The notes: generated by a model not told the origin, from the sequence alone. A stretch of 64,000 nt of DNA from Patescibacteria group bacterium (GCA_023484045.1 JAMDAA010000035.1:10966-74965); one strand, 5' to 3'. Shown: positions 1 through 32,933, counted from the stretch's first letter. Numbers and translations are program-made.

Positions 1-624
1 TATCCATGTTTCTGGTTGTGTAAAGTCTGTCGACTCCGATCGGAATACAACTTTTAAACCCATCTTCCATCTGCAAAGTTGCGGTTTTCGGAACGATTAA
101 AAGAGAGGAAAGTGTTGTTAAAAGTTTTTTTGACGTTTCCTCGAGTTCCGGCAAGGTTTTACAGGAGATTGTAACGTATAGGCTGAATTGAAAAAACCGC
201 TCGACGCCTTTTGCGAGCTCTTCTTGTAATGCTAAAGCGTCCTCCAATGCTGCTGTGACCTTTGGGTCGATTACTCTTCCTTGTTCGGCCTCCGATGAAA
301 TCGTCGCTTCCATTTCAGCGACTTTTCGTCGTAAATCGGTTAATACGTCACCCGAAAAAGTCGGATAGCAAAACATCGAAATGTTCATCGTGTTGCCAAA
401 ATCGATTAATGGCTCGAGCCAATTCGGAGATACAAAGCGCGGATAGCCGACGATAAAAAAAGTTCTGTAAAATCTTTCCCCAATTCTGATATAGCGAAAA
501 TCAACTTCGATTGAAGACGGCGCGATAATATCAATAAGTGACACCATGCCTTTTTCGACCGCTGGTATTACATTGCTAGCAGGCGTTTTAGGCGCCACAG
601 CTTTATTTTTATTTTTACCGAATA
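1..624 (-). CDS. VirB4/TrbE-like conjugative ATPase, N-terminal 208 aa only (partial; continues beyond window start)
   Basis: Own translation of the reverse strand from the ATG at 624: MSLFGKNKNK...IEVDFRYIRIGERFYRTFFIVGYPRFVSPNWLEPLIDFGNTMNISMF. This matches the N-terminal CagE/TrbE/VirB4-type domain pattern. The frame is open to coordinate 1. It is not in the ORF track because no stop codon lies inside the window. Confidence 0.45.
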
Positions 625-627
625 GAC

Positions 628-1281
628 TCATACGCTTTTTTGTGCCGTAATCATCGGCGTTTTTATGTCGTTACTTTCAACCAATGTGTTTTCTTCGGCT
701 TCTTCGTTATAGACAGAATAGTAAAGTTTTACCAATTCTTCTTTTTCGAGTGTTTTTGCTTTGAGTCCGAGTCTTGCGAGTTGCGTATTCAGAGAGCTCG
801 ATTTTGTATCCAGGGCTTGTTTTGCCTGCTCCTTCGAATTTTTGTCTTTAATAACGCTCGCCGCGCCTTTCTCAAGCGGCGAATAAGGAATAACAATATA
901 GAATTTTTTATCCAGGACTTCGTTTACTTTTATCAATTCTTGTACGAAATCGTGATACAAACTTATTTGCAGCGAAAGTTTTTCGTTGGTCGATTTTTTA
1001 ACTTCTTCTTCGAGTAATTTTAAATAAGACGAGATATCGACTTTTTTGTTTCGGATCAACACTTGTATCGGAAAAGAAAGTGAATTCAGAAGCGACGCGT
1101 AAGAATATATTTTTGTATTTTGTTCTTCTCTTGACAAAAGCGAAAAGTTAGTCGCCTGAATTTCGGTGATCAAACACGCGTTTCCGCCTGTCAAAAACAC
1201 GATATTCCCCTCGATATCGACAATTTCAGTAAATTTTTGGGTAGACCCTGCTTTTATTTTGTTTGGTTTATCGATCGCCAT
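628..1281 (-). CDS. Hypothetical protein in the T4SS-like operon, between the PrgI-like and VirB4-like genes
   Basis: 217-aa ORF separated by 3 nt from both the upstream PrgI-like gene and the downstream VirB4-like start. Charged and coiled-coil rich. No family recognised. Confidence 0.4.
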   Translation of the reverse strand: MAIDKPNKIKAGSTQKFTEIVDIEGNIVFLTGGNACLITEIQATNFSLLSREEQNTKIYSYASLLNSLSFPIQVLIRNKKVDISSYLKLLEEEVKKSTNEKLSLQISLYHDFVQELIKVNEVLDKKFYIVIPYSPLEKGAASVIKDKNSKEQAKQALDTKSSSLNTQLARLGLKAKTLEKEELVKLYYSVYNEEAEENTLVESNDIKTPMITAQKSV

Positions 1282-1283: not shown

Positions 1284-2534
1284 TTAATTACCTGCCGCGC
1301 TTGAAAACAATGCTTTTCTTAACTCTTCACGTTCGTCGCTCGAAATTACCTCAAGCGGCGAGATTATTTCTCCCGACACGATAAGCTCAATGACGTCAAA
1401 CTTATTTTTCCCTTTTGGGTCTTCAAATGCGACAGTATACGTGCCGTTTAAAAGCGGCGTCGCTGACGCAAATTGGCCCAAGCCGTTTGTTTTAAACGCG
1501 CGAACAGGATTTCCTTCTTTATCCTTTACCTCGATTAAAATACCCGGCAATACGTTTCCTCTGGCGTCTTTAACGATTCCTGTTATTAGATTTGGAACAT
1601 CGGGCGTTATTGGCGCGCCGACAGTTTTGCCCATCGTTTTTGGAATCGTTCTCACGTTTTGAGTTTCGGCTTTGGGTTGTATTGCCCCCGGTGTAAACAC
1701 TTTTTGCTGTTGTGTTTCGATTGTTTTTTTAAGGTTCAATAATTGCTGTTCAAATTGATTTCGTTCTGTCATAACTTCGTTTAACTGCTGTTCTAGTTCC
1801 AATACTTTTTGATGTATGTTTGCGGTCACAGCTGGTTCTTTCTGAATCGCTTCCTCTTTTTTTGCCTCCTCGAGTTCTTTTGTGATCAACGCCGCTTCTT
1901 TTTGAAGCACCTCGTTTAAATTTTGTTGATTTTTAGGTTGGGAAATGATAGGTTTTTCTTCTTTTCTGGCGGAGCCAGATCCCGCTTCGCGGGACTTTTT
2001 TTCCTCATCTGTCAAAATTATGCGTGGCGGTCCGCCAGGTGGCTGAGAAACCGTTGGTTGGGCCATGCCACCACTAAGCATCGACGAAAGAGACTTAAAA
2101 AACATCATTTCCTTTTCGTCGTGTTTCTCTTTCGGTTTTTGTGGAAGATTTGCTAAATACATCTGAAGTTTGTTTTGCGATTGCGCTTGTGTTTGTTTTG
2201 CCGGGCCTTGAATTTTTTGAATTACGATCGGGACTAATAACTGCCCTCCGAGTTTTTGATAAACGTACTGATTGGGAGAAAAAAGCGCTCTTAAAAAATT
2301 GCCAAACATTATATCGAGCGGTCTTCCTTCGATCGGCAAAAAAGCCAAAGAAACACCAAGTAAAGCAGAAAACAAAGAAATGGAATATTTTATAAGCCAA
2401 AAAATGGGTGCGTAAAAAAATAAAAATGCCAAACCGACTCCACCGGCCAAAAACGCAAACTGCTTAACCGTCATGTCGCCGATCAATTTAAATTTAAATC
2501 CGGTAACATCCTGGGGTATTGGATGATTTTCCAT
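1284..2534 (-). CDS. PrgI-family (VirB3-like) membrane protein with a long C-terminal coiled-coil / beta-rich extension
   Basis: The N-terminus IPQDVTGFKFKLIGDMTVKQFAFLAGGVGLAFLFFY...GRPLDIMFGNFLRALFSPNQYVYQK matches the PrgI-family pattern (xPQxIxxEDKIxGPxTxKQFxYLAGG, two TM segments, then YxWxK). Residues 100-416 are an extension with a Q-rich coiled coil and a C-terminal beta-sandwich-like region. Confidence 0.55.
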   Translation of the reverse strand: MENHPIPQDVTGFKFKLIGDMTVKQFAFLAGGVGLAFLFFYAPIFWLIKYSISLFSALLGVSLAFLPIEGRPLDIMFGNFLRALFSPNQYVYQKLGGQLLVPIVIQKIQGPAKQTQAQSQNKLQMYLANLPQKPKEKHDEKEMMFFKSLSSMLSGGMAQPTVSQPPGGPPRIILTDEEKKSREAGSGSARKEEKPIISQPKNQQNLNEVLQKEAALITKELEEAKKEEAIQKEPAVTANIHQKVLELEQQLNEVMTERNQFEQQLLNLKKTIETQQQKVFTPGAIQPKAETQNVRTIPKTMGKTVGAPITPDVPNLITGIVKDARGNVLPGILIEVKDKEGNPVRAFKTNGLGQFASATPLLNGTYTVAFEDPKGKNKFDVIELIVSGEIISPLEVISSDEREELRKALFSSAAGN

Positions 2535-2542
2535 AATATTTT

Positions 2543-3016
2543 AAAATCCGAAATTCGAATATCGAAATTCGAAACAAATTCAAATTTTTAATTTTTAAAT
2601 ATCTAAATCTATTCTGACTTTCGAATTATCGATCCAAATATGTTCATTAATTCTGTTGCTTCTTTAATCAATACACCTCTTTCTTTTTCTAATTCAGGAT
2701 TATTGTTTATATCTATTAGCAATAGCCAATATCTACTTTCTTTTACTTCTTTCCTACAAATTTTAATCCTCAAAACAAAATCTTTTTTACTTAACGATTC
2801 ATTCGCCTCAATGTAATTTGCTCCAACCGACCCAGATGCTCTTATAAGTTGTATGCCGTCTTCGATGTTTCCGACTGTTTTAACTACTTTTTTAACAAAA
2901 ATTCTTACTCTCTTAGCAAAATTAAATGTCCTTTCCTCTAGGTCGTATTGTTTTGTATTTTTGATTTCTGTCATTTAGAGATTGTTTCGGGTTTCGGACT
3001 TCGTGCTTCGGATTTT
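2543..3016. other. Four-helix-bundle ORF cassette 1, bracketed by an imperfect inverted repeat (IR-L 2543-2577, IR-R 2983-3016)
   Basis: IR-L is aaaatccgaaattcgaatatcgaaattcgaaacaa. The reverse complement of IR-R is aaaatccgaagcacgaagtccgaaacccgaaacaa. Both are built of NNNCGAA heptamers and identical at both ends. The IRs start about 9 nt outside the ORF start codon and about 30 nt after the stop. Confidence 0.45.
2609..2974 (-). CDS. Four-helix-bundle protein (TIGR02436-type; 23S rRNA intervening-sequence protein / DGR Avd family)
   Basis: 121 aa with ...FAKRVRIFVKKV...LIRASGSVGANYIEANESLSKKDFVLRIKICRKEVKESRYWLLL, the characteristic IAEG/ANxxEA...S.KDF...ALGS/CRKE...E..YWL pattern. Confidence 0.75.
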   Translation of the reverse strand: MTEIKNTKQYDLEERTFNFAKRVRIFVKKVVKTVGNIEDGIQLIRASGSVGANYIEANESLSKKDFVLRIKICRKEVKESRYWLLLIDINNNPELEKERGVLIKEATELMNIFGSIIRKSE

Positions 3017-3180
3017 AATGCATAAAACTGTCTTAAATAAGATTATTATGTGAAAAAAATGTTTGCAAGATTATCAAAGTGGGTCAAACGTTACTATAAA
3101 TCAGCCTGCCCCGTGAAAATTGCTCTCTGAGCCGTATTCGAATAGAATAAAAAAGGCGAAAGAGGCTAGTTGTGAAAAAT

Positions 3181-3528
3181 TTATTTATTGAGGCAGACAT
3201 CAAAACCAAAACTTTTTATGCAACCTACCCCTGTAATATAACTTATAAAGCTTATAATAAAGTAGGAAAGAAGAATAATTACGAGTCCGATAATAGCGTA
3301 GGTTAATGTTTTTTTTGCGCCTTCGACTTGCTTTTGGTCGCCGCCAGATGTAATAAATTTAATACCCGAGATTATAACGATTATTACTGCAACGACTCCG
3401 GCCAAAATCAGCGCCCAGATCAAACCATTGTGAAATACGGCGGGAAGACATTTTAAAGTTGCAACTTTATCGCCTTTTTCAGTTGTTTCTAGACATTCAG
3501 GAACAAATGTTTCCCAGTCCACTCCCAT
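3181..3528 (-). CDS. TrbC/VirB2-like pilin-type small membrane protein (paralog 1)
   Basis: 115 aa with a hydrophobic helix, then GIKFITSGGDQKQVEGAKKTL, then a second hydrophobic helix. This two-TM plus conserved GG(D/N)xxKxxxAK loop is shared by all five paralogs. Confidence 0.5.
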   Translation of the reverse strand: MGVDWETFVPECLETTEKGDKVATLKCLPAVFHNGLIWALILAGVVAVIIVIISGIKFITSGGDQKQVEGAKKTLTYAIIGLVIILLSYFIISFISYITGVGCIKSFGFDVCLNK

Positions 3529-3573
3529 ATCTTAAGATTATCAAACAGCGTTAGAAAAGACAAGTTGAATTTA

Positions 3574-3981
3574 TTAGGAGCCGATCAGGGGAGGTATCGT
3601 AAGATTTGTAATATTAATTCCGAACAATTGCGCTACAAACGATATAATAAAGTAAGCCAATATCGCAATAATTAATCCTACAATCGCCGCCACAATCTGA
3701 TTTCTCGCTCCCTCTACTTTCGATTTATCTCCGCCGGAAGTAATCCATCTTATTCCGCCGATGATTAAGAAGAATACGGCGATAATAATCGCGATAATAA
3801 TAACAGCGATTATGACTCTACCGACCATCGGGCCGAAATCTGTCGGCGTAATCAAACATATTTGTCTGAGAATGTCATTTTTCTCTTTTTCTTGGCAAAT
3901 AGCAAGGTCTACGGCAAAAGCAGGATTTGCCAGTAATAGATACGAGATAAGTCCTGTTATCGGGGCGATAATTTTCCTCAT
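3574..3981 (-). CDS. TrbC/VirB2-like pilin-type protein (paralog 2). Start trimmed to MRKIIAPITG with a signal peptide
   Basis: Signal peptide ending ANPAFA, then the core FGPMVGRVIIAVIIIAIIIAVFFLIIGGIRWITSGGDKSKVEGARNQIVAAIVGLIIAILAYFIISFVA. This core is identical to paralog 3 over 68 aa. Confidence 0.5.
   Translation of the reverse strand: MRKIIAPITGLISYLLLANPAFAVDLAICQEKEKNDILRQICLITPTDFGPMVGRVIIAVIIIAIIIAVFFLIIGGIRWITSGGDKSKVEGARNQIVAAIVGLIIAILAYFIISFVAQLFGINITNLTIPPLIGS
3635..3838. repeat. 204-bp perfect direct repeat, copy A (inside pilin paralog 2); identical to 4213-4416
   Basis: Direct base-by-base comparison of the two regions. Identity begins at acaaacgatataataaagtaagcc and ends at ggccgaaa. 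Flanks diverge immediately on both sides. Confidence 0.9.
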
Positions 3982-4043
3982 TAGATTTATGATATGGAGA
4001 TTTTTGGAGTTTGTCAAGAGGAAAATATTTTAAATTTAACTGT

Positions 4044-4571
4044 TTACCGACATTCAAAAATTGGCGGGAGTAGTCCAGGATTAATTTGGGTACAGGTTCC
4101 CGAAGTGCAGGATCCAGATGTATTCCCGCCGCAAACAGCAGACGAAGAGCTACTTCCGCCTATTAAATTTGGAATCGTGAGATTCGTAATCGTTATTCCG
4201 AATAATCCGGCCACAAACGATATAATAAAGTAAGCCAATATCGCAATAATTAATCCTACAATCGCCGCCACAATCTGATTTCTCGCTCCCTCTACTTTCG
4301 ATTTATCTCCGCCGGAAGTAATCCATCTTATTCCGCCGATGATTAAGAAGAATACGGCGATAATAATCGCGATAATAATAACAGCGATTATGACTCTACC
4401 GACCATCGGGCCGAAACTTTGAGGATTAAAACCGCAAAGTATCTTATTAAATCCTGTGTTGCCTCCTGCTCCGGCCTGACTGCAAACGTCAACCGTTACG
4501 TCGGCAAAAGCGGGTTTTATAAAAAAGAGATAAAAAAACAGAGTACTAAAAAATGCAAAAATTTTCCTCAT
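4044..4571 (-). CDS. TrbC/VirB2-like pilin-type protein (paralog 3) with a Cys/Gly/Ser-rich C-terminal tail
   Basis: Same start and signal peptide as paralog 2 (MRKIFAFF...KPAFA) and the identical 68-aa core. It has a divergent N-terminal region and a C-terminal GGSSSSSAVCGGNTSGSCTSGTCTQ tail. Confidence 0.5.
   Translation of the reverse strand: MRKIFAFFSTLFFYLFFIKPAFADVTVDVCSQAGAGGNTGFNKILCGFNPQSFGPMVGRVIIAVIIIAIIIAVFFLIIGGIRWITSGGDKSKVEGARNQIVAAIVGLIIAILAYFIISFVAGLFGITITNLTIPNLIGGSSSSSAVCGGNTSGSCTSGTCTQINPGLLPPIFECR
4213..4416. repeat. 204-bp perfect direct repeat, copy B (inside pilin paralog 3)
   Basis: See copy A. The offset between copies is 578 bp. Confidence 0.9.
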
Positions 4572-4616
4572 TAAATTTATAGTAGCTGGTTTTTAAAAAT
4601 TGTCAAGTATTATGGT

Positions 4617-4943
4617 TTATTTAAGATTACCGACTAAATTAGTCCCGAATAAGCCGCCTATAAAACCGATTATAAAGAATGCGAGAAGAATAATTACAAG
4701 TCCGATAATCGCAAAAGTAATTTTTTGCCTTGCTTTTTGGATCGCTTCTTTGTTTCCTCCGGATGAACTCCACTGAATTCCGCCCCAAATTAAAAAAATA
4801 AGCGCGAGGATAATCGAAACTACAAAAAGAATAACTATTGTATTTGAAATAATTTTCTGCAGAGTTCCTTCTCCGGCAGTCGGCACATTACCTGGAACAT
4901 TGATTTCTCCAAGCTGAGGAATATTTAATGCAAAAAGTTTCAT
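4617..4943 (-). CDS. TrbC/VirB2-like pilin-type protein (paralog 4)
   Basis: 108 aa: ...IVILFVVSIILALIFLIWGGIQWSSSGGNKEAIQKARQKITFAIIGLVIILLAFFIIGFIGGLFG. Confidence 0.5.
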   Translation of the reverse strand: MKLFALNIPQLGEINVPGNVPTAGEGTLQKIISNTIVILFVVSIILALIFLIWGGIQWSSSGGNKEAIQKARQKITFAIIGLVIILLAFFIIGFIGGLFGTNLVGNLK

Positions 4944-4944
4944 T

Positions 4945-6369
4945 TTAAGGAATTTTTAAAGACCATCCGGGAATATGTAATATATTAACTCCGATAAGTT
5001 CCAATATAAATATCGAAAATATTATAAATAAAAGACCCACAATGGTAGATGTTAAGGTTTCCTTTGCCCCCTGAACTTTTTCTGCATTTCCCCGAGACGT
5101 CATTAGTTTATAACCGGAATAAATAATTAATAAGAGGGCAATTCCACCAGAGAGACTAAGAGTAATTCCAAAAATGCTTGCTATAAAGTCTTTTGGGTCA
5201 GTGCCAATGTCGATTCCTAAACCGGTGGAAACCTTTTCACATTTATCATTTACTAGTCCACCGGGCGCGCAAACTGGCGCGGGAGGAGGGAACGATTGTT
5301 GGTCAGATGATTTGTCGTAAAGTATACACCCATAACCCTGATAACACCATCCGCTAGCAGAGCAATCGACATATGATGTTGGATCAGTAAATTCAGTTTG
5401 ATTTTTGATGTTTTGACACGTATTTTCGAAGCCATTCCAAATAAATTTATTTGAACAAACAGGACAGCTTGTTAATAAATCTGGATTCTGTGTCGGTTTA
5501 GGGATTGGAGTGTTTCTCGGAATCGGTGTTGGAGTATTTGTGCCTGCTGGAGCGGGATTAACTTTAAAGTTTAATGGGCACCAGTTATTGTATTGTATGG
5601 ATTCGGAATCACTACCAATATAGACCTCATAAGTTCCTAATTGGGATGGTGCTGAAAATTCATGTGCTAAAGTATTATTAGCATCAAGCGTAACTGGTTC
5701 TGGATTTTTTGCGTCCCAACTTCTGCCAAAATATACAGACTTTTTTGTTATTCCGGGCCATGTTACTTTGTACGTTAAACCTGCATTAGGGGTTGTATCT
5801 ATTAAATCTTGCGATTGTCCACATTGTGGGTTAACATTGACCGATGGCTGCGGGGTTGGTGTTGATGATTGATTTTGATCAGACTTAATAATATTAATTA
5901 CATATTCGTCAACTTGATTAAAAATATCACCGCCCAATGTAATAACCTTTTTTTTATTAAGGATAATGTCATATCTTCCCAGAACAAGGTTTTTTAGATC
6001 ATTTTTATCATCAACTACGAACTCGTGTTTTGTCGCTCCAGTATCATGAGTATCAAAAACAAAATAAGGATGTAATCCTTTTTTCCGTGCAAATTGAGCG
6101 CAATCATTATTATATGAATTCGTAAGCGTACTTTCTAAAAATACATATTTATCAAGATTTTGAATTTCTATTACATAACAAGTTCTTGGCTGGAGATTAG
6201 AAATCTTGATTTTAAAAGGGGAACCTTCTTTGAAATTATTTTCAGACGTGGCCACAATTTTTTCTGGATTTTCAGAGTCAGAGTTAGCAAATACATTCTT
6301 GGCAAAAGTTATTAAGTAAGAAAGGATAAAAACTATTATTAATAATAAAAGAAGATTATTTTTTCTCAC
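4945..6369 (-). CDS. Large secreted protein (about 400-aa Cys-rich extracellular region) fused to a C-terminal TrbC/VirB2-like pilin module
   Basis: N-terminal signal peptide. The long extracellular region has about 16 Cys and PTP-rich linkers. The C-terminal 75 aa, GGIALLLIIYSGYKLMTSRGNAEKVQGAKETLTSTIVGLLFIIFSIFILELIG, has the same two-TM pilin-like architecture as the four short paralogs. Confidence 0.5.
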   Translation of the reverse strand: MRKNNLLLLLIIVFILSYLITFAKNVFANSDSENPEKIVATSENNFKEGSPFKIKISNLQPRTCYVIEIQNLDKYVFLESTLTNSYNNDCAQFARKKGLHPYFVFDTHDTGATKHEFVVDDKNDLKNLVLGRYDIILNKKKVITLGGDIFNQVDEYVINIIKSDQNQSSTPTPQPSVNVNPQCGQSQDLIDTTPNAGLTYKVTWPGITKKSVYFGRSWDAKNPEPVTLDANNTLAHEFSAPSQLGTYEVYIGSDSESIQYNNWCPLNFKVNPAPAGTNTPTPIPRNTPIPKPTQNPDLLTSCPVCSNKFIWNGFENTCQNIKNQTEFTDPTSYVDCSASGWCYQGYGCILYDKSSDQQSFPPPAPVCAPGGLVNDKCEKVSTGLGIDIGTDPKDFIASIFGITLSLSGGIALLLIIYSGYKLMTSRGNAEKVQGAKETLTSTIVGLLFIIFSIFILELIGVNILHIPGWSLKIP

Positions 6370-6551
6370 TTCTTCATCGTAGAATAGTTAAAAAAGTTTT
6401 GCAACTAAGGAGAAAATTTGAGACCGCGGCCTTTTATTGTTTGGAGATGGATTGGGTTATTGGGACCAGCTTCGATTTTTCTGCGGAGTCGGTACAGTCA
6501 TCGGTTTTCGGTTGTCAGTTTTCAGAAATTTGTTTGTCGGTTTTCGGTTAA

Positions 6552-6926
6552 TCAGTCAAATTTTTGCCAGGAGGATAAAAGTTTGTTAAGTTTTCTAGAG
6601 AGAATTTTATATTTTTCTATTAGCCATTCGCAATCTTCAGTTCGGATTCTGGTATAAGTTTTTGCCACAATTTTTATTTCTCTAATATGAGTTATAACTT
6701 CATCTGATGACCCAAGTGCCATTGACAAAAACCTGCAGAATTCCCGAGGCGACCTTTTCTTGCCAAAGCCTTCTGCTATTTGAGGAGCAATTTTTTCTCC
6801 AGCTTCGTTTGCTTGGAATTTAAGCCTTCTATGAGTTAGAGGAAGTAAGTTTGTAATTCTATATAATGGTTCAAGGAGATCAAGTGACAAATTATAAACT
6901 TCAAGGTCAGTAACATCTTTAATCAC
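6552..6926 (-). CDS. Four-helix-bundle protein (TIGR02436 / Avd / IVS-protein family), copy 2
   Basis: MIKDVTDLEVYNLSLDLLEPLYRITNLLP...IAPQIAEGFGKKRSPREFCRFLSMALGSSDEV. Flanked by heptamer-repeat tracts at 6470-6551 and 6930-7000 that are roughly inverted with respect to each other. Confidence 0.75.
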   Translation of the reverse strand: MIKDVTDLEVYNLSLDLLEPLYRITNLLPLTHRRLKFQANEAGEKIAPQIAEGFGKKRSPREFCRFLSMALGSSDEVITHIREIKIVAKTYTRIRTEDCEWLIEKYKILSRKLNKLLSSWQKFD

Positions 6927-7000
6927 TCTCTTAGTCTATCAGATAAACAGATAACTGATAAACTTTTGTCCGAGAACAGAAAACCGGGAACTGATAACAT

Positions 7001-8377
7001 TTATGCAGTGAATTTCATTCCTCTCCCCTTAATTGTCTCCAGATGCTTTGGGTTATTTGGGTCTGTTTCTATTTTCTTCCGCAATCTAAAAATTAACTGA
7101 TCAAGCGCCTGGTCTGTTACTCCGGCCGTTGTTTGAGTATCTTTCCAGACCGAATTTATTATCTCTTCTCTCTCTATAATTTTTCCCTGATTTTCGATTA
7201 AATATTTTAAAAGCCGAAATTCAGCAGAAGTTAAATTCTCTGAAAGAACAAGTTCTCCTTTTTTAATCTCTCTTGCGTCTTGGTCGTAATGTATTTGTTC
7301 GTGGGCGGTTTCTTTTAATGTTTTAATATATTCTTCAAAAATCGGAATTGCGATCTGTTGATTTTTTAACATCCCGACTTTTTCAAGATATATTATGTTT
7401 TCTTTTTCGATATTAAATACCGTGCTTGAAATATTAGATATTAAATATTCTTGTTCGGCCGGAATAAACGAAGACCAGATTTCAAAAAGCCCTTTTTGAA
7501 CCGGTTTTTGTTCGAGCAAAAATTCGATAAGTTTCTTAGCGTTTGGCTGTAAGTCCTTATCTGCTAATATACTTTCCGCACAAAGTCTCGTCAGTTTTCC
7601 GTGTCCTCCGGTTAAATCGATAATTTTGTCCAAAAGTTTTATGTCGATATCTTTTCCCGATATTTTCTGAAGATATGAAATTCTAAAATCTGTTCCCGGT
7701 TTATCATAAAGCGAAAGATAAATAATATTTCCGGCGATAAACTCGTAAAAGTCTGCAAAAAGCGCCGGTTCGATTAAGTCTTCAAGCGGCCGGGGAAGCG
7801 AAAAAATAACAGAAAATCTGTACTTGGCGATGTTTCTAAGGGTTTTAAGATTTATAAAAAACTGATCGGAAACTTTTGAAATATAGTCTTCGAATCTGTC
7901 GAAAAGAAAAACAACGGCTAGTTCCTTTTCGATCGACAAAAAATTAACAGCTTCTTTTAGCCCCTGAAAAAGAACGATTTCATCATTTTGAATCATATGG
8001 GATTTGAATATTTTATGGAGTGCTTCGTGTTCTGCATTCAGCTTCCGGTCGCGGAGCGAATCGGCCAAAGACAAAAACATAAATTTTAGAACGTCAAAAA
8101 GAGATCGGTTTTTGACTTCGGAAAAATTCATGTAGACAAAGTGAAGCCATTTTTGATCTTCGCCTGAATGTTTAATGCGGACATTCCGGTTATAGGCAAG
8201 AAGTCTTAATAGATTTGATCTTCCTGTTCCGGGAAGGCTTACGATCTGACACGATTTCCCTCCTTTAATAAAACCCAGAATTTTTTCGATTTCTGCAAAA
8301 CGAGAGTCGTCGGGGTATAAAGATTCAAAATGAAGACCTTCCATTGCTTCATTGTTAAATTGCTTGATTGTTTTCAT
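7001..8377 (-). CDS. P-loop NTPase fused to a C-terminal OmpR/PhoB-type winged-helix DNA-binding domain (putative regulator)
   Basis: N-terminal SLPGTGRSNLLRLL P-loop-like motif followed by an ATPase-like region of about 300 aa. The C-terminal FRLLKYLIENQGKIIEREEIINSVW...ALDQLIFRLRKKIE...IETIKGRGMKF is a typical trans_reg_C winged helix. Confidence 0.6.
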   Translation of the reverse strand: MKTIKQFNNEAMEGLHFESLYPDDSRFAEIEKILGFIKGGKSCQIVSLPGTGRSNLLRLLAYNRNVRIKHSGEDQKWLHFVYMNFSEVKNRSLFDVLKFMFLSLADSLRDRKLNAEHEALHKIFKSHMIQNDEIVLFQGLKEAVNFLSIEKELAVVFLFDRFEDYISKVSDQFFINLKTLRNIAKYRFSVIFSLPRPLEDLIEPALFADFYEFIAGNIIYLSLYDKPGTDFRISYLQKISGKDIDIKLLDKIIDLTGGHGKLTRLCAESILADKDLQPNAKKLIEFLLEQKPVQKGLFEIWSSFIPAEQEYLISNISSTVFNIEKENIIYLEKVGMLKNQQIAIPIFEEYIKTLKETAHEQIHYDQDAREIKKGELVLSENLTSAEFRLLKYLIENQGKIIEREEIINSVWKDTQTTAGVTDQALDQLIFRLRKKIETDPNNPKHLETIKGRGMKFTA

Positions 8378-8434: not shown

Positions 8435-8806
8435 TCAAAGTTTATTTCTTCCTTTTAACGTAGAAATACTTGAACCAAGGATTTTTACAAGTTCATCTGT
8501 TTCTTTTAAGAGTGCTTCAATTTCTGCTATTAATTTGGGATCAAGATCTTTTGATAAAGCCAGCCAAAATTTAGTTTCGTTCCCGCTTTTTAAAGCGTGA
8601 TTTAAGAAATTAACAAAATCTCTTTTTGAACTAGCCGCTTGTGCTTCGATAATATTAGCCCCGATGGATGTCGCTGCTCTTAAAAGCTGATCGCTTATAA
8701 CCCATGCAGATCTTTTATTGGGGAACTTATCAACCAGATTAATTATTCTTCTGGCCAAAATAAACGCCCGGCTTATTAACTGTTTTTTAAAATCTTTGTT
8801 ATTCAT
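8435..8806 (-). CDS. Four-helix-bundle protein (TIGR02436 / Avd / IVS-protein family), copy 3
   Basis: ...RAATSIGANIIEAQAASSKRDFVNFLNHALKSGNETKFWLAL... Flanked by inverted heptamer-repeat tracts at about 8390-8440 and 8807-8860, both containing ttaaaagttcaaagt. Confidence 0.75.
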   Translation of the reverse strand: MNNKDFKKQLISRAFILARRIINLVDKFPNKRSAWVISDQLLRAATSIGANIIEAQAASSKRDFVNFLNHALKSGNETKFWLALSKDLDPKLIAEIEALLKETDELVKILGSSISTLKGRNKL

Positions 8807-8938: not shown

Positions 8939-11575
8939 ATGAAAGAGGTTTTTAGGCCAACGCCCGAATTGACAAACAAGGCTCCGGTGCAATATTCTAG
9001 AACTGGAGATATTTTTATGGGGGAAAACAGTGGAGAAAAAAATCCTTCTGGACAGAACAATGCAGCTGAACAAGTCAAGACCCCAACCTCTCAGCAGCTT
9101 ATTGCTGGACTAGAATCTATGCACCCGGAAAATTGGGGGTTAAGAGAATCATTTATTCGAGGAAGAAAACAACTAGGTCCGGAATCGATTGTGGATCGAT
9201 TGGATCCGGTTGCTGCCTCAATTCTATCGATCGATCCCACAGGATTTCATGAAGATCCGATTGTAAATGCGATCAATTATTTACAGCTAGAAGCCAGAAA
9301 GGGGAGAGTCGATTTATCTACTTTAAGGGAAATCCGCGAACCGATTTTAAAAGATTTTCTCAGTCCTGATCGAAAAATAAGTTCTGCGGAGGCGACTGAG
9401 TTTTTAAGTAGGACAAGAGACATATTAACCTTGGCGCAAGGAATAAAAGAGCTGGAAGAAGAGGAAGAAAAAAAGGCCGAGGAGGGGAGAAAAAAAGCAG
9501 AAAGAGTAACTGAAGAAGAGAAACTTAAGGATTCAGAAGTGATCGAAAGACTATTTCAGGAAAACATGTTGCGGATTGAACAGCGTGAAATGACTACTCA
9601 AAGCCAGGCGTGGTTTGAAGAAACAACCATGATTAATAAGTTAATAAACTTGGCAGAAGATCTTGGAGATAAAGACCCGGGAGGTAAATTACGTCAACGG
9701 TTAGTCGCACAAAAAAACGTGCGCTTTGCCCTTCACGACATCAATTTCTATGCGCGGGCAGGAATCAAGGAAAATTTTCCCCACATGAGTGAGGCAGCAA
9801 ACCAAATCAATACAGAACATTTTTATTTGGTACACGCCTTGCCTGGCGTAGCGCCAGTTATGCGTATTTTTGAAGAAGAGTATTCTAAGGCAATCCAACA
9901 AACAGGAAGAATTACAGATATCGAGGTCCAAAAAGTCCGTGCCGATGTAGAAAAAAGGTTTAATACGGTAGCTACGATGTACGGTTTAACAGAGCCTCAG
10001 GCGAAAACAGCTTTTAGACTCGGAGAAAACCTATTTAATACTAAAACTCGTTTAGCAGTTTATATATCGCGTGGCGAGATTCCGCAAAATTTGGAGTATC
10101 TACGCACAGATCCTTGGAGTGAATTTGTGCGTTTATATTCTGCTTATGAATTTGAAGTTGGCAAATGGAGATCAATACCAGAAAGCGCAAAAGACTTCGC
10201 CCGATTTTTAGGTAAAACAGCCTTCGACAAAATTCTCAGTGTCCCCGATCACGATTCTTCAATATGGAGAACTTTTGGAATAATCGAAGGATTAAATCAA
10301 AAAGGATATTACAAGTGGGGTCTTTTTATGAGGTTAAAATTTGCTTATAAAGACAAAAAAGCCTTATACGGCGAGGATGGAAAATCGGGCGAAGATCGAA
10401 AAAAAATGGAGAAAAGAGCGGATGAATTAAGGGATGAAATTGTCCAGGATTTTTTGAAAGGAGGAGCATCAAGAGAAGAAGCGGACAAAATGGGAGACAG
10501 AAGAGTCGCGGGATACTGGAAAGACATGCAAAAAGAAATAGATACTAAAACGCATATGGGCAAAACTGGAGAAACCGGGGAGCCTCAACTTAAACAAGTT
10601 TTTAGAGAAGATATTCTTAAGGAAATTAATCATTATATGCCCGAAGAATTAGCGCGGGCATATTGGGGAGATGAGCAATTAGCGAATGTAATTAAAGAAT
10701 GCGGAGGGGCGGAAGTGTTCGGTGAATTATGCAACGAATTAACCCGGATTCGAGAAGAGGAATTAAGAGATGAAAAAGAAAGAGTAAAAGGTCTTAGCGC
10801 TGAGGATCGTGAAAAAAGACAAGACAATTATCAAAATTTTGACAGTAAGGTTACTCATCTTAAGCCAGAGCTTCGTAATCTTTATGCAAGGCTTCATGAT
10901 TTTTTTGAAGAAATAGATGGAAAAGATGGAAAAGGAAGAACAAGAATACAGATTCTCACAGATGAAGATGCAATTATTGGCGGAAGAAAAAATCCTTTGT
11001 ATGACAAAATTTGGTCTGAAAAAGACATGCCATTTGAAGAATTAGAAGATACTATAACACCTGGCTTTGTCGGCCATAAAACATTGGGAAGAAATTATAA
11101 TGATCATGCTGCAGCATTTGGTACCTTAGAAATACTTGAAGAGCTCGCAAAAAATCCAACAAATTTGGAAAATTTACAAAAACTCCACGGAACATTTTCA
11201 AAGTGGCTCGGTTTGGAAACTGAAGAAAAATTAATCGCCCAAATCGCAGAGTCCGTATTAAAATATCATGCCCAAGATGAAGCTTTTAGGCATTTAATGC
11301 CTGGAATTTCAAATCTTCTTGGCTGGGTCATAAGAGGTGGTTCTTCACCTGCGCGAAGAAGATTGGGGAAAAAAGGAGCACAATGGGATTCAGGAACATT
11401 AAATGATCAAATAAATGAAATGCAGGCAAAAGGGTTATTGAGCAAGGAAAAGGCAGATGAACTACGGCAAAAATTGCACATTGTATTTGGTTTTAGGATT
11501 CTACCCTTAGTTCAATTATTTATACTTACTATGGTTTTTGAGATTATCTACAGCCAGGGTCCCCAGAAGAAATAA
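8939..11575 (+). CDS. Large (878 aa) highly charged hypothetical protein with a single C-terminal hydrophobic segment
   Basis: Long intact ORF, rich in E/K/R with coiled-coil-like stretches. The C-terminus is ...FGFRILPLVQLFILTMVFEIIYSQ. No recognised catalytic motif. Confidence 0.5.
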   Translation: MKEVFRPTPELTNKAPVQYSRTGDIFMGENSGEKNPSGQNNAAEQVKTPTSQQLIAGLESMHPENWGLRESFIRGRKQLGPESIVDRLDPVAASILSIDPTGFHEDPIVNAINYLQLEARKGRVDLSTLREIREPILKDFLSPDRKISSAEATEFLSRTRDILTLAQGIKELEEEEEKKAEEGRKKAERVTEEEKLKDSEVIERLFQENMLRIEQREMTTQSQAWFEETTMINKLINLAEDLGDKDPGGKLRQRLVAQKNVRFALHDINFYARAGIKENFPHMSEAANQINTEHFYLVHALPGVAPVMRIFEEEYSKAIQQTGRITDIEVQKVRADVEKRFNTVATMYGLTEPQAKTAFRLGENLFNTKTRLAVYISRGEIPQNLEYLRTDPWSEFVRLYSAYEFEVGKWRSIPESAKDFARFLGKTAFDKILSVPDHDSSIWRTFGIIEGLNQKGYYKWGLFMRLKFAYKDKKALYGEDGKSGEDRKKMEKRADELRDEIVQDFLKGGASREEADKMGDRRVAGYWKDMQKEIDTKTHMGKTGETGEPQLKQVFREDILKEINHYMPEELARAYWGDEQLANVIKECGGAEVFGELCNELTRIREEELRDEKERVKGLSAEDREKRQDNYQNFDSKVTHLKPELRNLYARLHDFFEEIDGKDGKGRTRIQILTDEDAIIGGRKNPLYDKIWSEKDMPFEELEDTITPGFVGHKTLGRNYNDHAAAFGTLEILEELAKNPTNLENLQKLHGTFSKWLGLETEEKLIAQIAESVLKYHAQDEAFRHLMPGISNLLGWVIRGGSSPARRRLGKKGAQWDSGTLNDQINEMQAKGLLSKEKADELRQKLHIVFGFRILPLVQLFILTMVFEIIYSQGPQKK

Positions 11576-11605: not shown

Positions 11606-13291
11606 CTATTGAAACCGAAATATTTGTCGGGCAGCACCCCACATGCCTGCTTTTTGAGTTGGGTTACCCGGTAAAGGAGTTCGAGACGCAGCAACTGCTT
11701 TCCCAGAACCACTAATTGCTCCTGTTCCAACCCCGAGCGCAGTAACAATCGGAGAAAGATCAACTTTAGGCGGCTTTAAGACTTGTTGCATATAAGTTAC
11801 TACACGTGGTGTAAGAAGTATAAATCCCATTCCGATTAAAGAACCGATTGGACCTACTTCTCCTCCAGTTGGATTTCCGATAAGCGGAGGTACAAACAAT
11901 GAACTATTTTTGTTAAAAATATTCATCATCGTGTTTCCTAATAATAGCATTGCAATTGTGGTAGGAAATGCTAATAGGTAAGAAAGCATGTAACGTAGCC
12001 AGCTTACAAACCCTCTTCCTCCGACAGCCGGGATAATCCCGGCTACGATCCAAAAAGGCGAGAGGGTAATACCGATTAGTATGGCGACATAAGCCATAAC
12101 AAGTTTAAACCAAAGTCTAAAAAGGGCCCAAAGGATCGCGATAAAAACAATAAGGAATACTAGCAAATAAGGGAGACCAAGTCTTAATGTAGATTGAGCG
12201 AGTCCATAAGAAACTAAACCCGCAGAGATACCGACCCCGGCTGAAATTAAAGGGGTTCCTATCATGCTCGATACTTTTGCCCCAGTTCCAATTCCGATAG
12301 ATGTACTAGCTATGTCGATTAACCAATTAAAAACATTATTTTTTAAACCACTTAATCCAGCAAATCCCTTCAGAAAATTAATAAATTCTGAGGGGCCCAA
12401 AAATGATATGACATTTTGATTTATGTCAAAAATCTTCCCCACAACCGCCGTAGCTGAACTGGCAATATTATTTGCCATTCCGGAAATATTTCCAATATTA
12501 GTTACACCTGGTCCATTACTAGTTCCACCAACAGCTTCTAAAACATTTCTCCCTTGTAAAATTGTTGGATTTAAATTGCTTACATCTATAGCTAAATTAG
12601 CGTTCGAGAATACCCCAAAAGTTAAATACATAAGTATCCACATAAGATCAATCAAAAACCCTGCAATAGCGAAGGAGAATGTAACCATGATGACACCGAT
12701 AATGATTCGCGGGATCTGGTTTTGTATAGTCATTACGGTTCGGGGATCAATTTTAACCCTCAACATTATCATTAATCCTATTATGATAAATATAAGTATA
12801 AAGACGAAATAAACCATATTTCGAAATATAACCCATAATTGCATTAACGGTTTTATGCTATCGAGACCAGTCGATGCATATACGGGTTTTGCGAGGCCAA
12901 AATTACGCGCCAAATAATTAAAATAATCACTTGTATGTATTGGTGGGGTATAAAGCGTTGCGATCATGTTCCCCATAACTCCGATCGCGCCTCCGCCGTT
13001 TTCGACAAAGCCGATTTTCCCAGTTTTTTGATCCACGCCTAAACACTTTTGATTTGGATTTACCGGATCGACACCTGTTAACTGACAAGTCATGGCAGAC
13101 ATAACTTCGATCATCGCATTTTGTGTCCAGGTATGAAGATTTTGGGGAATATCAGGATTAGTGTTAGGAGCAGCATATTGATTTTGTTGGTGTGTTTGTG
13201 ATTGGGCATATGACGGCGTGATAGAAAATAGAAGATAGAAAATAGAAGATAGAAAGAAAAGAGCGACGATATGGACAGTTTGTTTAAACAT
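11606..13291 (-). CDS. Polytopic membrane protein with signal peptide, possibly VirB6/TrbL-like
   Basis: 561 aa. Signal peptide, then a soluble domain of about 110 aa, then at least seven hydrophobic helices and a Gly-rich C-terminus. The architecture resembles VirB6/TrbL. The assignment is by context and topology only. Confidence 0.35.
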   Translation of the reverse strand: MFKQTVHIVALFFLSSIFYLLFSITPSYAQSQTHQQNQYAAPNTNPDIPQNLHTWTQNAMIEVMSAMTCQLTGVDPVNPNQKCLGVDQKTGKIGFVENGGGAIGVMGNMIATLYTPPIHTSDYFNYLARNFGLAKPVYASTGLDSIKPLMQLWVIFRNMVYFVFILIFIIIGLMIMLRVKIDPRTVMTIQNQIPRIIIGVIMVTFSFAIAGFLIDLMWILMYLTFGVFSNANLAIDVSNLNPTILQGRNVLEAVGGTSNGPGVTNIGNISGMANNIASSATAVVGKIFDINQNVISFLGPSEFINFLKGFAGLSGLKNNVFNWLIDIASTSIGIGTGAKVSSMIGTPLISAGVGISAGLVSYGLAQSTLRLGLPYLLVFLIVFIAILWALFRLWFKLVMAYVAILIGITLSPFWIVAGIIPAVGGRGFVSWLRYMLSYLLAFPTTIAMLLLGNTMMNIFNKNSSLFVPPLIGNPTGGEVGPIGSLIGMGFILLTPRVVTYMQQVLKPPKVDLSPIVTALGVGTGAISGSGKAVAASRTPLPGNPTQKAGMWGAARQIFRFQ

Positions 13292-30079: not shown

Positions 30080-30739
30080 ATGCAAATAATTCCTGGGATT
30101 TTAGAAAAAACTTGGGAAGAGGTTGAAAAAAAGATCGAAACCGCTAAAACTTTTTCAAAAATTATTCATATCGATATAATCGACGGAAAATTTGCGCCGA
30201 ACACGACTTTTTTAGATCCAGCGCCGTTTAAAAAATATTCAAACGATTTTTTTTTCGAAGTTCAACTAATGGTCGATGAACCGATAAATTATTTAAAACC
30301 TTTTGCCAACTCGGGGTTTAAAAGATTTTTGGGGCAGATCGAAAAAATGTCGAGTCAGGAAGAGTTTATAGCGCAAGGACAACTTTTGGGTGAAGTGGGT
30401 TTGGCGATCGATCTTCCAACCCCGATAGATTCGATAAAAGTTCCGTTCGACGGTCTTGACTGTTTGCTTTTTATGTCGGTAAAAGCGGGATTTTCGGGAC
30501 AAAAATTTTCGGAAAATATTTTGGAAAAAATAAGATCAGCAAGGCAAAAAACCTCGATCCCGATCGAAATCGATGGCGGAGTAAACGAAGAAAATATCAA
30601 ACGCCTTTTAGAATCCGGAGTTAATCGTTTTATCGCGACAAGCGCAATTTTTGGTTCGGATAATCCTTTAAATCAATATCGAAATTTACAAAACTTCCTT
30701 AAAGAGTCGGACTCACAGACGGAGAAGGAGACGGAGTGA
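30080..30739 (+). CDS. rpe: Ribulose-phosphate 3-epimerase
   Basis: HIDIIDGKFAPNTTF, LMSVKAGFSGQKF and EIDGGVNEENIKRL...FIATSAIF align with the Rpe motifs HFDVMDxHxVPNxT, LMSVNPGFGGQ and EVDGGV...AGSAIF. Confidence 0.8.
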   Translation: MQIIPGILEKTWEEVEKKIETAKTFSKIIHIDIIDGKFAPNTTFLDPAPFKKYSNDFFFEVQLMVDEPINYLKPFANSGFKRFLGQIEKMSSQEEFIAQGQLLGEVGLAIDLPTPIDSIKVPFDGLDCLLFMSVKAGFSGQKFSENILEKIRSARQKTSIPIEIDGGVNEENIKRLLESGVNRFIATSAIFGSDNPLNQYRNLQNFLKESDSQTEKETE

Positions 30740-32933
30740 AGATGCAGTTTACAGAATTTTCGGTTCCTTTTATAAAATATTCAATTCTCCCAAGACACGG
30801 TTTTTGAATAACATCAAAAGGCATTTTATATTTTTCATCGGGCTTATTTTTTAGGACCTCGGTCATGATTTTGTTCCAAATCGGTGCGGCACCCGTTATT
30901 CCCGATGCTAAACTTTGACTCATTGGGCTATTGTCGTTATTTCCAACCCAGACAGCAACAACATAAGAAGGTGTATAGCCGATTGTCCAATTATCTCTTT
31001 TGTTATCGGATGTTCCGGTTTTAACCGACACAGTCTTGCCAGAAATATTAAGAGGGGAATTTGTGCCGAATTCTAAGGCTCGAGCTTGATTATCTGAAAG
31101 TATGCTCGAAATAATAAAAGTAATGCCTTCATCTAAAACAGTTTTTCCATGGATTTCTTTTTTTTCTTCTAAGATGTTACCTTTATAATCGGTTATTTTT
31201 AAAATCGGGTTTAAATCGACTCTTCTGCCCTGATTCGCGATGGTTCCGTAAACGGTCGCCATATCGAGCATCGTGACATCCGCACCGCCGAGCGTTATCG
31301 ATAAACCGTATTTTTTCGAATCATCCCACGATTTTATTCCCATTTTCTTTCCCAAGTTTACGATCGCTTGGACCCCGACTTGATTTACAATTTTTACAGC
31401 AGGAATATTAAAAGAATTTGCAAATGCGATCCGAAGCGGAATATTCCCATGGAATTTACCGTCATAATTAACAGGTGAATAAACAGTTGCAGAACCGGTT
31501 GCAACAAACGTGATCGGAGAATCATTTAGAATTGTTGCAGGAGTTAGTCCGCGGGAAAGTGCTGCGGAGTACGTGACGACTTTTATCGAAGATCCGGGTT
31601 GGCGAAGAGAAAGTGTCACGTTTACATTTCCATCATTTTTTGTGTCAAAATAGTCTTTACTTCCGACCATCGCTAAAATATCTCCATTTTTCGGATCAGT
31701 TACGACACTCGCGCCGTTTGTAAGATTTAAGTAAGTATTATTTTGCACCTCATCTGCGACAATTTTTTCGGCATCTTCCTGAAGTTTTAAATCGATGCTT
31801 GTTATAATATTTAATCCGCCTTTTTCGACCATTCCGAGGCCATATTTTTTTACCAAAAAATCTTTCACATACATCACAAAATGCGGAGCGAATATTGGCG
31901 TTTGGGGAGTTTGAAAAGCTAGCTCTTCATTTTTTGCATTGTCGTGATCTTCCTTTGAAATATAATCCAAGGAAAGCATTTTGTCTAAAACTTCGATTTG
32001 TCTCCTTTTCCAAAGATTAGGTGTTGTGCCAAACGGAGAATAGATCGTCGGTGCTTTTGGGATTCCGGCCAAAAATGCAGATTCAGCAAGGTCTAAATCT
32101 TTGACGTTTTTTCCGAAATATATTTCGGAAGCCGCCTCTGCGCCCCAGGCAGTTCCCCCGTAAGGAACCTGATTAAAGTACATCTCGAGAATTTGGTTTT
32201 TGGTATAAATTCTTTCGGACCAGAAGGCAAGGATTATTTCTTTTATTTTTCTTTCGATCGTAGTTTCGGGACTTAAAAGCGCAGACTTAATAAGTTGTTG
32301 GGTGATCGTTGATCCGCCCTGCAACCCGTCTCCCGACGCATTTTTAATCGCTGATCTTATGATCGCGTTTACGTCAAATCCCGGGTGATCGTAAAAATCT
32401 TTGTCTTCGATCGCGATCGTCGCCTGCTGTAATTTTATCGGAATATCAGAAAGCGGGACCATGGTCCTGTTTTGATTTGCGTAAATTTGATATAAGAGCG
32501 TATGGTTTCGATCATAAATTTTTGTTGTTTGCGAGATGTCCCTTAAAGACAGCATTCTCGGATTCGGAAGGTTATCGATAAAAATAAATATAAGAATCGG
32601 GATAAAGATAAAAACACAGGAAAAAATAATGCCCCAAATAAAATATTTAAATTTTGTTAAAAACGGGAGAGGGAATATAACTATCGGCTTTGTTTTCTTA
32701 CTTTTTTTTATCCTATTTTTAATTTTTTCGTAGAATTGTTTTTTGGTTTTATTATTAGATCGAGAAAACCTCAACCTTCTTAAATCAAAGATTTCAAAAG
32801 TAATCTTAAAAAGATTAACTATAGGTTTAAATAAATTTTTGACAACAGATTTAATTGATTTAAACAATAAGATTACAAAATCACCAATTTTAATCAGAAT
32901 CTGCGCGATAAAAAAAGCAATATTCCCGATCAT
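30699..32933 (-). CDS. Class A penicillin-binding protein (transglycosylase + transpeptidase), paralog 1
   Basis: GT51 motifs IEDKDFYDHPGFD and GGSTITQQLIK. Transpeptidase region LSLRQPGSSIK (SxxK). N-terminal TM. Confidence 0.8.
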   Translation of the reverse strand: MIGNIAFFIAQILIKIGDFVILLFKSIKSVVKNLFKPIVNLFKITFEIFDLRRLRFSRSNNKTKKQFYEKIKNRIKKSKKTKPIVIFPLPFLTKFKYFIWGIIFSCVFIFIPILIFIFIDNLPNPRMLSLRDISQTTKIYDRNHTLLYQIYANQNRTMVPLSDIPIKLQQATIAIEDKDFYDHPGFDVNAIIRSAIKNASGDGLQGGSTITQQLIKSALLSPETTIERKIKEIILAFWSERIYTKNQILEMYFNQVPYGGTAWGAEAASEIYFGKNVKDLDLAESAFLAGIPKAPTIYSPFGTTPNLWKRRQIEVLDKMLSLDYISKEDHDNAKNEELAFQTPQTPIFAPHFVMYVKDFLVKKYGLGMVEKGGLNIITSIDLKLQEDAEKIVADEVQNNTYLNLTNGASVVTDPKNGDILAMVGSKDYFDTKNDGNVNVTLSLRQPGSSIKVVTYSAALSRGLTPATILNDSPITFVATGSATVYSPVNYDGKFHGNIPLRIAFANSFNIPAVKIVNQVGVQAIVNLGKKMGIKSWDDSKKYGLSITLGGADVTMLDMATVYGTIANQGRRVDLNPILKITDYKGNILEEKKEIHGKTVLDEGITFIISSILSDNQARALEFGTNSPLNISGKTVSVKTGTSDNKRDNWTIGYTPSYVVAVWVGNNDNSPMSQSLASGITGAAPIWNKIMTEVLKNKPDEKYKMPFDVIQKPCLGRIEYFIKGTENSVNCIFTPSPSPSVSPTL
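31585..31679. repeat. 95-bp block identical to 34080-34174 (between the two PBP paralogs)
   Basis: Direct comparison: atcgaagatccgggttggcgaagagaaagtgtcacgtttacatttccatcattttttgtgtcaaaatagtctttacttccgaccatcgctaaaat is identical in both genes. Two further shared blocks of about 32 bp lie near 32296/34790 and 32395/34880. Confidence 0.9.

Follow-up and report, generated by a model that had tools for sequence, protein, structure and literature searches.

The subject of this analysis is a pair of adjacent pilin genes, here called A and B, in a metagenome-assembled genome (MAG) of an uncultured, ultrasmall Patescibacteria group bacterium. The window, that is the whole stretch of DNA analysed, covers 64,000 nucleotides (nt) of one contig (GCA_023484045.1 JAMDAA010000035.1:10966-74965). 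A and B are VirB2-like type IV secretion system (T4SS) pilins of the PF18895 family, and they belong to a five-gene array in a chromosomal Patescibacteria (Microgenomatia-like) T4SS. This assignment is made because PF18895 scores above its gathering cutoff in all five genes of the array (5/5), and because genes for PrgI, a TraC-like protein and VirB4 lie adjacent to them. The original prediction for this DNA, which had spoken of tandem pilin-type paralogs, was right about pilins, although the family is the VirB2-like one of T4SS and not that of type IV pilins; it also requires the correction that both genes lie on the minus strand. The features of the pair are the following.

3574..3981, minus strand: gene A (M1268_04150), an open reading frame (ORF) for a 135-amino-acid (aa) 'mid-type' VirB2-like T4SS pilin; PF18895 at 29.0 bits against a cutoff of 26.6
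4044..4571, minus strand: gene B (M1268_04155), an ORF for a 175-aa 'tailed' mid-type VirB2-like pilin; PF18895 at 28.8 bits against a cutoff of 26.6
3635..3838, minus strand: identical block, copy in gene A; exact, maximal match, starting in codon 48 (third position) and ending in codon 116 (second position)
4213..4416, minus strand: identical block, copy in gene B; exact match to 3635..3838
3593..3634, minus strand: post-core segment of gene A (LFGINITNLTIP...), homologous to 4171-4212 in gene B at about 79% nt identity
3989..4017, minus strand: promoter-like site of gene A, TTGACA-17-TATCAT; 11/12 match, ending 7 nt before the ATG
4579..4606, minus strand: promoter-like site of gene B, TTGACA-16-TACTAT; 10/12 match, ending 7 nt before the ATG

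The product of gene A starts with MRKIIAP and consists of a signal peptide (MRKIIAPITGLISYLLLANPAFA), an N-terminal segment with two Cys, a two-helix core and a short C-terminus. The product of gene B has the same core, another signal peptide and N-terminal segment, and an extra 40 aa made up of a Ser-rich linker and a 4-Cys C-terminal tail. The genes are separated by a spacer of 62 nt without a mobile element. Their database entries are hypothetical proteins of a 'Patescibacteria group bacterium' MAG, on a contig of 74,973 bp, where P0001 corresponds to gene B at 100% and P0002 is the source record of gene A.

Mosaic structure of the gene pair

The two copies of the block are identical over 204 nt at an offset of 578, lie in direct orientation, and cannot be extended by a single base at either end; the identity reported by the original prediction is confirmed. 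The encoded peptide, FGPMVGR...ISFVA, comprises the first transmembrane helix (TM1), an SGGD loop and the second (TM2). A repeat finder delimited a wider pair (3593-3838 and 4171-4416) with 96% identity over 246 nt, and the 204-nt pair is the top repeat of the whole 64-kb window, being both the longest and the most identical. A sensitive blastn search of the window with 3540-4620 found no third copy, and the only other similarity lay in the core of the adjoining pilin (4749-4816, 71% over 69 nt). The region has a GC content of about 36-38%. The alignment of the two genes contains 91 differences in 405 positions. When these differences were permuted, the longest identical run averaged 19 nt (20,000 permutations), and a run of at least 204 nt was obtained in 0 of 200,000 permutations.

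Genes A and B are homologous from end to end, though very unevenly. The promoter-like region, the signal peptide (MRKI.A...PAFA) and the two-Cys segment share 51% of their nucleotides, and this upstream and N-terminal part aligns at an offset of 590 as compared with 578 for the core, a change of 12 nt. After the core, the next 19 codons are 65% identical in nucleotides, with 14 of 19 aa identical in the pairwise codon alignment and 79% aa identity in the multiple alignment; beyond the segment that can be aligned to A, gene B extends 40 residues further (GGSSSSSAVCGGNTSGSCTSGTCTQINPGLLPPIFECR). The part of this region at 3593..3634 represents the older level of divergence adjoining the converted tract. 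Over their whole length the two proteins are 73% identical, whereas the core of 69 aa is 100% identical. An identical two-TM core in adjacent genes had been correctly recognized by the original prediction, except that the peptide is 69 and not 68 aa long, and the termini quoted there (MRKI(I/F)A..., ...LFGINITNLTIPPLIGS and the Ser/Cys-rich tail) are accurate. Its statement that the ends differ completely does not hold, given the similarity after the core and the recognisable homology of the signal peptides and upstream regions.

The relation of A to B depends on the part of the protein compared. Against 119 homologs, the two are mutual best matches both in the core (100%) and in the 19 aa that follow it (79%), whereas a partition ranking places the partner 18th and 9th of 121 for the signal peptide and 73rd and 119th of 121 for the mature N-terminus. 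The signal peptide of A is 78% identical to P0008, and the tail of B resembles that of P0099 (z=3.6 versus shuffles, 0/500). The paralogs of the window thus pair together within the tract but not in its flanks, which is phylogenetic incongruence.

The synonymous sites give the same contrast. Codons for the same amino acid that differ in nucleotides number 2 of 69 in the core, both at the edges of the block, against 14 of 30 in the flanks (Fisher p=3e-7). In the unconverted control pair of locus L010, the core proteins are 87% identical and yet 23 of 60 codons carry synonymous differences, as against 2 of 69 in the window (p=2e-7). Far fewer synonymous differences in a tract than in its homologous flanks is the mark of concerted evolution, and it is present here. 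Because the core is nearly without synonymous change, recent gene conversion would be the cause rather than purifying selection, and because the flanks are homologous but diverged, A and B would be full-length, old paralogs. On the sequence comparisons, the 204-nt identity appears best explained by recent gene conversion between older paralogs, which is well supported; the partition ranks, the synonymous contrast and the permutations all agree with the recent conversion that the original prediction had proposed.

Recurrence of core homogenisation in relatives

The survey sample comprised 90 related loci and the window (91 in all), in which the mid-type class was found with a hidden Markov model. 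The order of the array is kept in the relatives: a large pilin-domain protein is followed by a pilin of about 110 aa, one or two mid-type pilins, which have a signal peptide and measure 130-200 aa, and another pilin of about 110 aa. Downstream of these arrays, where the flanks reach, genes for PrgI (L004) and for TraC-like and VirB4 proteins (L006) are found. Two mid-type pilins occur in 14 of the 91 loci, which represent 12 independent organisms, and nine of the 12 independent pairs have exact blocks of 65-354 nt common to both copies. The longest exact block measures 354 nt in L024, 288 nt in L055, 253 nt in L056, 210 nt in L020, 204 nt in the window, 164 nt in L016, 107 nt in L066, 86 nt in L060 and 65 nt in L005; in the other three pairs it measures 39 nt (L065), 18 nt (L010) and 12 nt (L006). 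Identity in the paired loci is typically focused in the core, with the signal peptide and the N-terminus far more diverged, and the boundaries of the conversion tract vary from genome to genome. The homogenised core with differing, presumably exposed N- and C-terminal segments that the original prediction had described is therefore found in related genomes as well, as the exact blocks in 9 of 12 pairs attest.

A pair of strains provides a closer view. Loci L016 and L020 come from strains of one metagenome that are about 90-97% identical, and in the four-way alignment of their copies the columns 98, 278, 317, 320 and 323 are alike in both copies of each genome and different between the genomes. 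Copy 2 of L020 is 95.9% identical to copy 1 of L016, as against 90.4% to its positional ortholog, copy 2 of L016. These site patterns are the signature of ongoing conversion.

Loci L053 and L056, two metagenome contigs from a different organism than the window, agree at every base (100%) through 2,908 nt and are unrelated from position 2909 on, which lies 6 nt before the stop codon of pilin 1. At this break, which adjoins the repeated core, the contigs come to encode different pilins: in one the pilin is 137 aa long, and in the other it is 204 aa long and ends in a Ser/Gly/Asn-rich tail with 4 Cys. Pilin 2 of L053 has a pilin-1-type mature N-terminus behind a different signal peptide, and the L053 contig ends inside the second copy. 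The junction may reflect strain-level reassortment at the repeat, or else an assembly chimera. L024 is of another kind: two 100% identical mid-type pilin copies (within 2414-5405; the identity spans 446 nt or more and takes in the upstream region) lie on either side of an ORF at 3641-4615 on the minus strand with features of an IS30-like transposase, as assigned by eye. This duplication would have a different origin, associated with an insertion sequence (IS).

C-terminal extensions on mid-type pilins were seen in five organisms, namely in B of the window, copy 2 of L010 (which is P0099), copy 1 of L053, copy 1 of L060 and the unpaired P0118. The extensions usually contain four Cys after a Ser/Gly-rich linker. 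Among these 'tailed' pilins, homology of the tails was detectable for B and P0099 only.

Topology, expression signals and genomic setting

An AlphaFold2 model of B was made from an alignment of 85 sequences and has a mean pLDDT of 76. It predicts a signal-peptide helix (residues 2-16), a short helix (41-46), a long hairpin with pLDDT 82-93, whose two helices (50-85 and 90-123) meet in the invariant SGGD loop, and a tail of low confidence. Across the 85 sequences, 11 alignment columns do not vary and a further 14 reach at least 90% conservation, nearly all of these columns lying in the core, and a cleavage-type AFA motif was noted by inspection at the signal peptide. As modelled, the protein would have the form of its family, which is a small protein with an N-terminal signal peptide and a hairpin of two hydrophobic helices. 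In solved conjugative pili, such as the F-type and T-pili, the loop between the helices lines the lumen and the termini face outward. By this analogy, filament packing and handling by the machinery would involve the converted tract, and the divergent N-terminal two-Cys segment and C-terminal tail would be the exposed parts.

The promoter-like sites of A and B are the two best sigma-70-like matches in 2900-7000. The total of such matches in that interval is not above the shuffled expectation, and the scan alone proves nothing. No Shine-Dalgarno sequence was found ahead of A or B. In the relatives (L004-L090), TTGAC[AT]-N16-18-TAnnnT ending 7-13 nt before the start codon is present at 60 of 80 unique mid-type pilin genes, and because this geometry recurs, both copies look expression-competent, with very short or absent leaders, and neither looks like a silent cassette. 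The arrangement suggests that mid-type mRNAs are strongly expressed and leaderless or nearly so. The consensus of the mid-type site is TTGACA-N16-18-TATGAT-like.

The other genes of the array and the T4SS genes of the window are listed below.

3181..3528, minus strand: small pilin paralog of 115 aa, downstream of A; PF18895 at 42.8 bits, syntenic in relatives
4617..4943, minus strand: small pilin paralog of 108 aa, upstream of B; PF18895 at 35.4 bits, core about 71% identical in nt to the A/B core
4945..6369, minus strand: protein of 474 aa encoded by the gene that opens the array; large extracellular region at the N-terminus, pilin domain at the C-terminus; PF18895 at residues 394-457
1284..2534, minus strand: member of the PrgI (VirB3-like) family that also has a CarboxypepD_reg-like domain; PF12666 at 29.3 bits (cutoff 27)
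628..1281, minus strand: TraC-like T4SS accessory protein; BLASTP 48% identity, E=1e-69, to an L006 protein bearing PF26593 TraC-like
1..631, minus strand: VirB4 ATPase gene, 5' part, running past the window edge; BLASTP 63% identity, E=2e-98, to the N-terminus of the L006 VirB4 with P-loop_TraG/DUF87
7001..8377, minus strand: protein of 458 aa with a C-terminal OmpR/PhoB-type winged-helix domain (Trans_reg_C); PF00486 at 72 bits
49187-51565, plus strand: VirD4/TrwB-like type IV coupling protein with DUF87, TrwB_AAD_bind, T4SS-DNA_transf and TraG-D_C domains

Besides A and B, the three genes of the array score 29.6-42.8 bits with PF18895. The 474-aa protein has homologs in the same position in L004, L005, L009 and L010, and its N-terminal region is large and Cys-rich. 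The 458-aa protein is a candidate regulator; a comparably sized homolog carrying this Pfam domain adjoins the arrays in L006 and L010. Pfam recognized neither the N-terminal fragment of VirB4 nor the 217-aa, 561-aa multi-TM and 878-aa proteins, and the VirB4 fragment and the 217-aa (TraC-like) protein were assigned by BLASTP to annotated relatives. The 878-aa protein (8939-11575, plus strand) and the 561-aa multi-TM protein (11606-13291, minus strand) occur at similar positions in relatives, judged by size and position only, and may be uncharacterised parts of the T4SS. The gene of the coupling protein lies 45 kb from the pilin/VirB4 cluster, and the remainder of the window consists of ordinary chromosomal genes (RNR, FtsH, MurD, penicillin-binding proteins, tRNAs).

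The minus strand carries three genes of the PF05635 family ('23S rRNA intervening sequence protein', an Avd-like four-helix bundle), at 2609-2974, 6552-6926 and 8435-8806. They sit between imperfect inverted repeats of short periodic units, with arms of 44 nt (2541-2584/2975-3018), 22 nt (6495-6516/6972-6993) and 50 nt (8393-8442/8807-8856), and look like small cassettes bounded by inverted repeats. The family is also interspersed in the pilin arrays of L004 and L005. A/T-rich periodic repeats (AAATCTCAAATCTC-like) at 52445-52484, 57298-57337, 58069-58108 and 60347-60386 resemble these arms, and PF05635 was absent from the ORFs tested beside two of these four repeats. A second tandem pair in the window consists of class-A penicillin-binding-protein paralogs (Transgly and Transpeptidase; 30699-32933 and 33020-35173, minus strand), which share patches of 72-91% nt identity. 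Their best patch, 140 nt at 91% (31581-31720 versus 34076-34215), may be an older conversion tract.

Interpretation and comparison with known systems

The explanation which is considered probable as a whole starts from an older duplication, which would have produced the adjacent and separately promoted genes A and B. The signal peptides, the N-terminal two-Cys segments and the C-terminal ends would then have diverged, with B carrying the extra Ser/Cys-rich tail. A recent non-reciprocal homologous recombination, i.e., an intrachromosomal gene conversion, would have copied at least 204 nt from one gene into the other, and the copied tract would be exactly the helix-loop-helix core. Such conversions would recur in the mid-type class and result in concerted evolution of the core that is packed into the filament and handled by the T4SS, while the segments expected on the pilus surface stay different. 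Conversion together with a filter of selection would maintain two co-expressed isoforms, a plain and a 'tailed' one, which could replace each other in processing and assembly, and their differing displayed surfaces are plausibly relevant to host attachment by the epibiont.

Several points weigh against this explanation. A Foldseek search found no significant match of the model to solved pilins, and the co-assembly, surface exposure and adhesive function of A and B, like the mechanism of the conversion, rest on inference. The nearest relatives in the searched collections are Microgenomates and Levyibacteriota proteins of about 55-65% aa identity, with none closer, which bears on the timing and direction of conversion; a look-up in an assembly index gave no match to the exact A and B proteins, and a scan of genome contigs gave only distant relatives (31-43% identity). 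The source is a MAG, and bubble-popping by the assembler between near-identical cores could exaggerate the perfect identity. Finally, the published survey of such arrays gives a maximum within-array identity of 54% (PMC12102498), which implies that pairs like A and B are either absent from that dataset or confined to a subgroup.

Of the other explanations, purifying selection alone could appeal to the core being the most conserved part of the family, but selection on a protein does not freeze synonymous sites; it is refuted by the synonymous comparison with L010 and retains next to no probability. A very recent partial duplication or domain shuffle, by which a duplicated core of one gene was joined to coding segments of unrelated origin on its N- and C-terminal sides, would fit the sharp fall of similarity to the random level at 3839/4417, and L024 illustrates that whole genes are duplicated in the family, in that case around an IS30-like transposase ORF. 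However, the homology of the two genes continues, in diverged form, through the 19 aa that follow the core (65-79%) and likewise through the two-Cys segment, the signal peptide and the promoter-like region, and only the short spacer free of mobile elements lies between the genes, which makes such an event very unlikely. An assembly artefact is judged quite unlikely as well, whether alleles of a single gene from two strains were stitched together or two similar but non-identical cores were merged into a consensus that was then written twice. An exact repeat of 204 nt exceeds typical k-mer sizes, so that read pairs are needed to resolve it; moreover the sequence is a MAG contig, and the end of the L053 contig inside the second copy indicates that assemblers struggle at this repeat. 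Nevertheless, the window has unique flanks and two intact ORFs, each with its own diverged promoter-like site, signal peptide and C-terminus, and tandem near-identical cores are found in at least eight other independent assemblies. Several of these retain internal core differences (L016 202/207, L020 205/207), which a collapse would not leave. Bubble-popping merges only sequence that is already similar, and a core of at least 95% identity between flanks of about 50-65% still needs conversion.

A programmed or high-frequency reassortment of segments would assign a different role to the constant core, namely that of a recombination handle by which exposed ends are swapped between paralogs or strains, or deleted and duplicated via the 204-nt direct repeat, with rapid variation of the pilus surface as the outcome. 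The mosaic of a constant core with variable exposed ends, the L053/L056 junction with the pilin-1-type N-terminus on pilin 2 of L053, the tract boundaries that differ among genomes, and published speculation linking VirB2 arrays to antigenic variation or host range (PMC12102498, PMC3556328) are all in its favour. Yet only two copies exist, both complete and promoter-bearing, no silent cassettes were found by blastn in the 64 kb, no recombinase gene is adjacent and no inverted repeats surround the pair. The L053/L056 junction lies at the repeat and at a contig end, and could be a chimera of the assembly. Ordinary RecA-mediated conversion accounts for everything observed, and reassortment of this kind is considered unlikely. 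The cassette or antigenic-variation mechanism suggested by the original prediction is accordingly not supported as it was stated.

Particular switching systems were also considered and rejected. A cassette system of the pilE/pilS type is contradicted by two genes that each run from an ATG to a stop codon and possess both a signal peptide and a promoter-like site, with no further complete or silent partial copy in 64 kb. A shufflon or invertase of the R64 pilV type is contradicted by the direct orientation of the repeat; no meaningful inverted repeat brackets the genes, and no recombinase domain was found in the neighbouring ORFs scanned. A target of a diversity-generating retroelement is contradicted by a repeat whose copies match at 100% and which spans the conserved core instead of the variable parts. 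No reverse transcriptase domain was found among the window ORFs scanned in an incomplete scan, and the Avd-like PF05635 genes lie nearby.

Under the favoured explanation of an old duplication with recurrent conversion of the core, an identical core with divergent ends leads to the hypothesis that both isoforms are incorporated into one filament or machine, the difference between them lying solely in the surfaces they present. Such a pattern would then single out residues that probably face the host, and the conserved promoter with a very short or absent leader could be used in expression studies. A bolder proposal is that the mid-type pilins of epibiotic Patescibacteria form a plain plus Cys-tailed two-isoform system, in which frequent conversion keeps the core identical and the same core serves as a crossover handle that reassorts exposed N-terminal loops and C-terminal tails within and between strains. 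This is held to be doubtful; if true, it would represent a simple, recombinase-free mechanism of surface variation, tuning the host attachment of a T4SS pilus essential in this phylum.

Pilin arrays of Patescibacteria have already been published, and A and B do not constitute a novel type of system. Quinonero-Coronel et al. (2025, PMC12102498) describe tandem VirB2-like arrays, with 2-11 genes each, from 383 assemblies of Patescibacteria, Microgenomatia having them particularly often. The members of such an array are highly divergent, their aa identity averaging 25%; an adaptation of the arrays to different host strains is speculation by the authors of that study. The array has proved essential for Southlakia epibionticum (Wang et al. 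2023, in the summary given by PMC12857230), and the T4SS together with the array is essential in the sole genetically tractable species of Patescibacteria (PMC12857230). Whether a pilus is built and why several pilins are needed are described there as open, polymerisation being unproven in any Patescibacteria (PMC12857230). The locus described here shares with the published arrays the PF18895 family, the tandem pilins beside virB4 and prgI and the chromosomal location. It differs in having two members that are 73% identical with a fully identical core (69 aa, 204 nt), and in the recurrent homogenisation in the mid-type subclass. A full-text literature search found no report of gene conversion in Patescibacteria pilin arrays; likewise, nucleotide-identical cores of neighbouring paralogs, recurrent concerted evolution in one pilin subclass and the accompanying variable, putatively exposed ends were not found in the literature searched.

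Similar arrangements are known from other bacteria. Anaplasma phagocytophilum and A. marginale have tandem virB2 paralogs beside virB4, whose products have a signal peptide and two hydrophobic helices (PMC3556328). The variation lies in the N-terminal region near a Cys and in the C-terminal region, for which an antigenically variable surface organelle was proposed (PMC3556328), and A and B resemble them in this variability around two conserved helices. Unlike the present pair, those pilins are of the PF04956-type VirB2, number 8-15 copies and belong to diderm Rickettsiales, and an identical nucleotide core between neighbours is not reported (PMC3556328). The organism here is instead a candidate monoderm-type epibiont with an MPF-FATA-like T4SS.

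The pilE/pilS system of Neisseria concerns a type IV pilin with one expressed locus and many promoterless, truncated silent copies, and its high-frequency, programmed events depend on a G4 cis element. The likeness lies in the non-reciprocal recombination between pilin copies and in conserved segments that bound variable, exposed ones. In the window, by contrast, both copies are complete and promoter-bearing, silent copies are absent, and it would be the conserved part that is transferred, not the variable one. For tufA and tufB, conversion of the RecA type keeps the paralogs identical or nearly so at synonymous sites, and the whole gene is homogenised. The pilin pair resembles them in the homogenisation of synonymous sites by putative conversion, but here the tract is limited to the structural core, and the ends are divergent and presumably selected to remain so.

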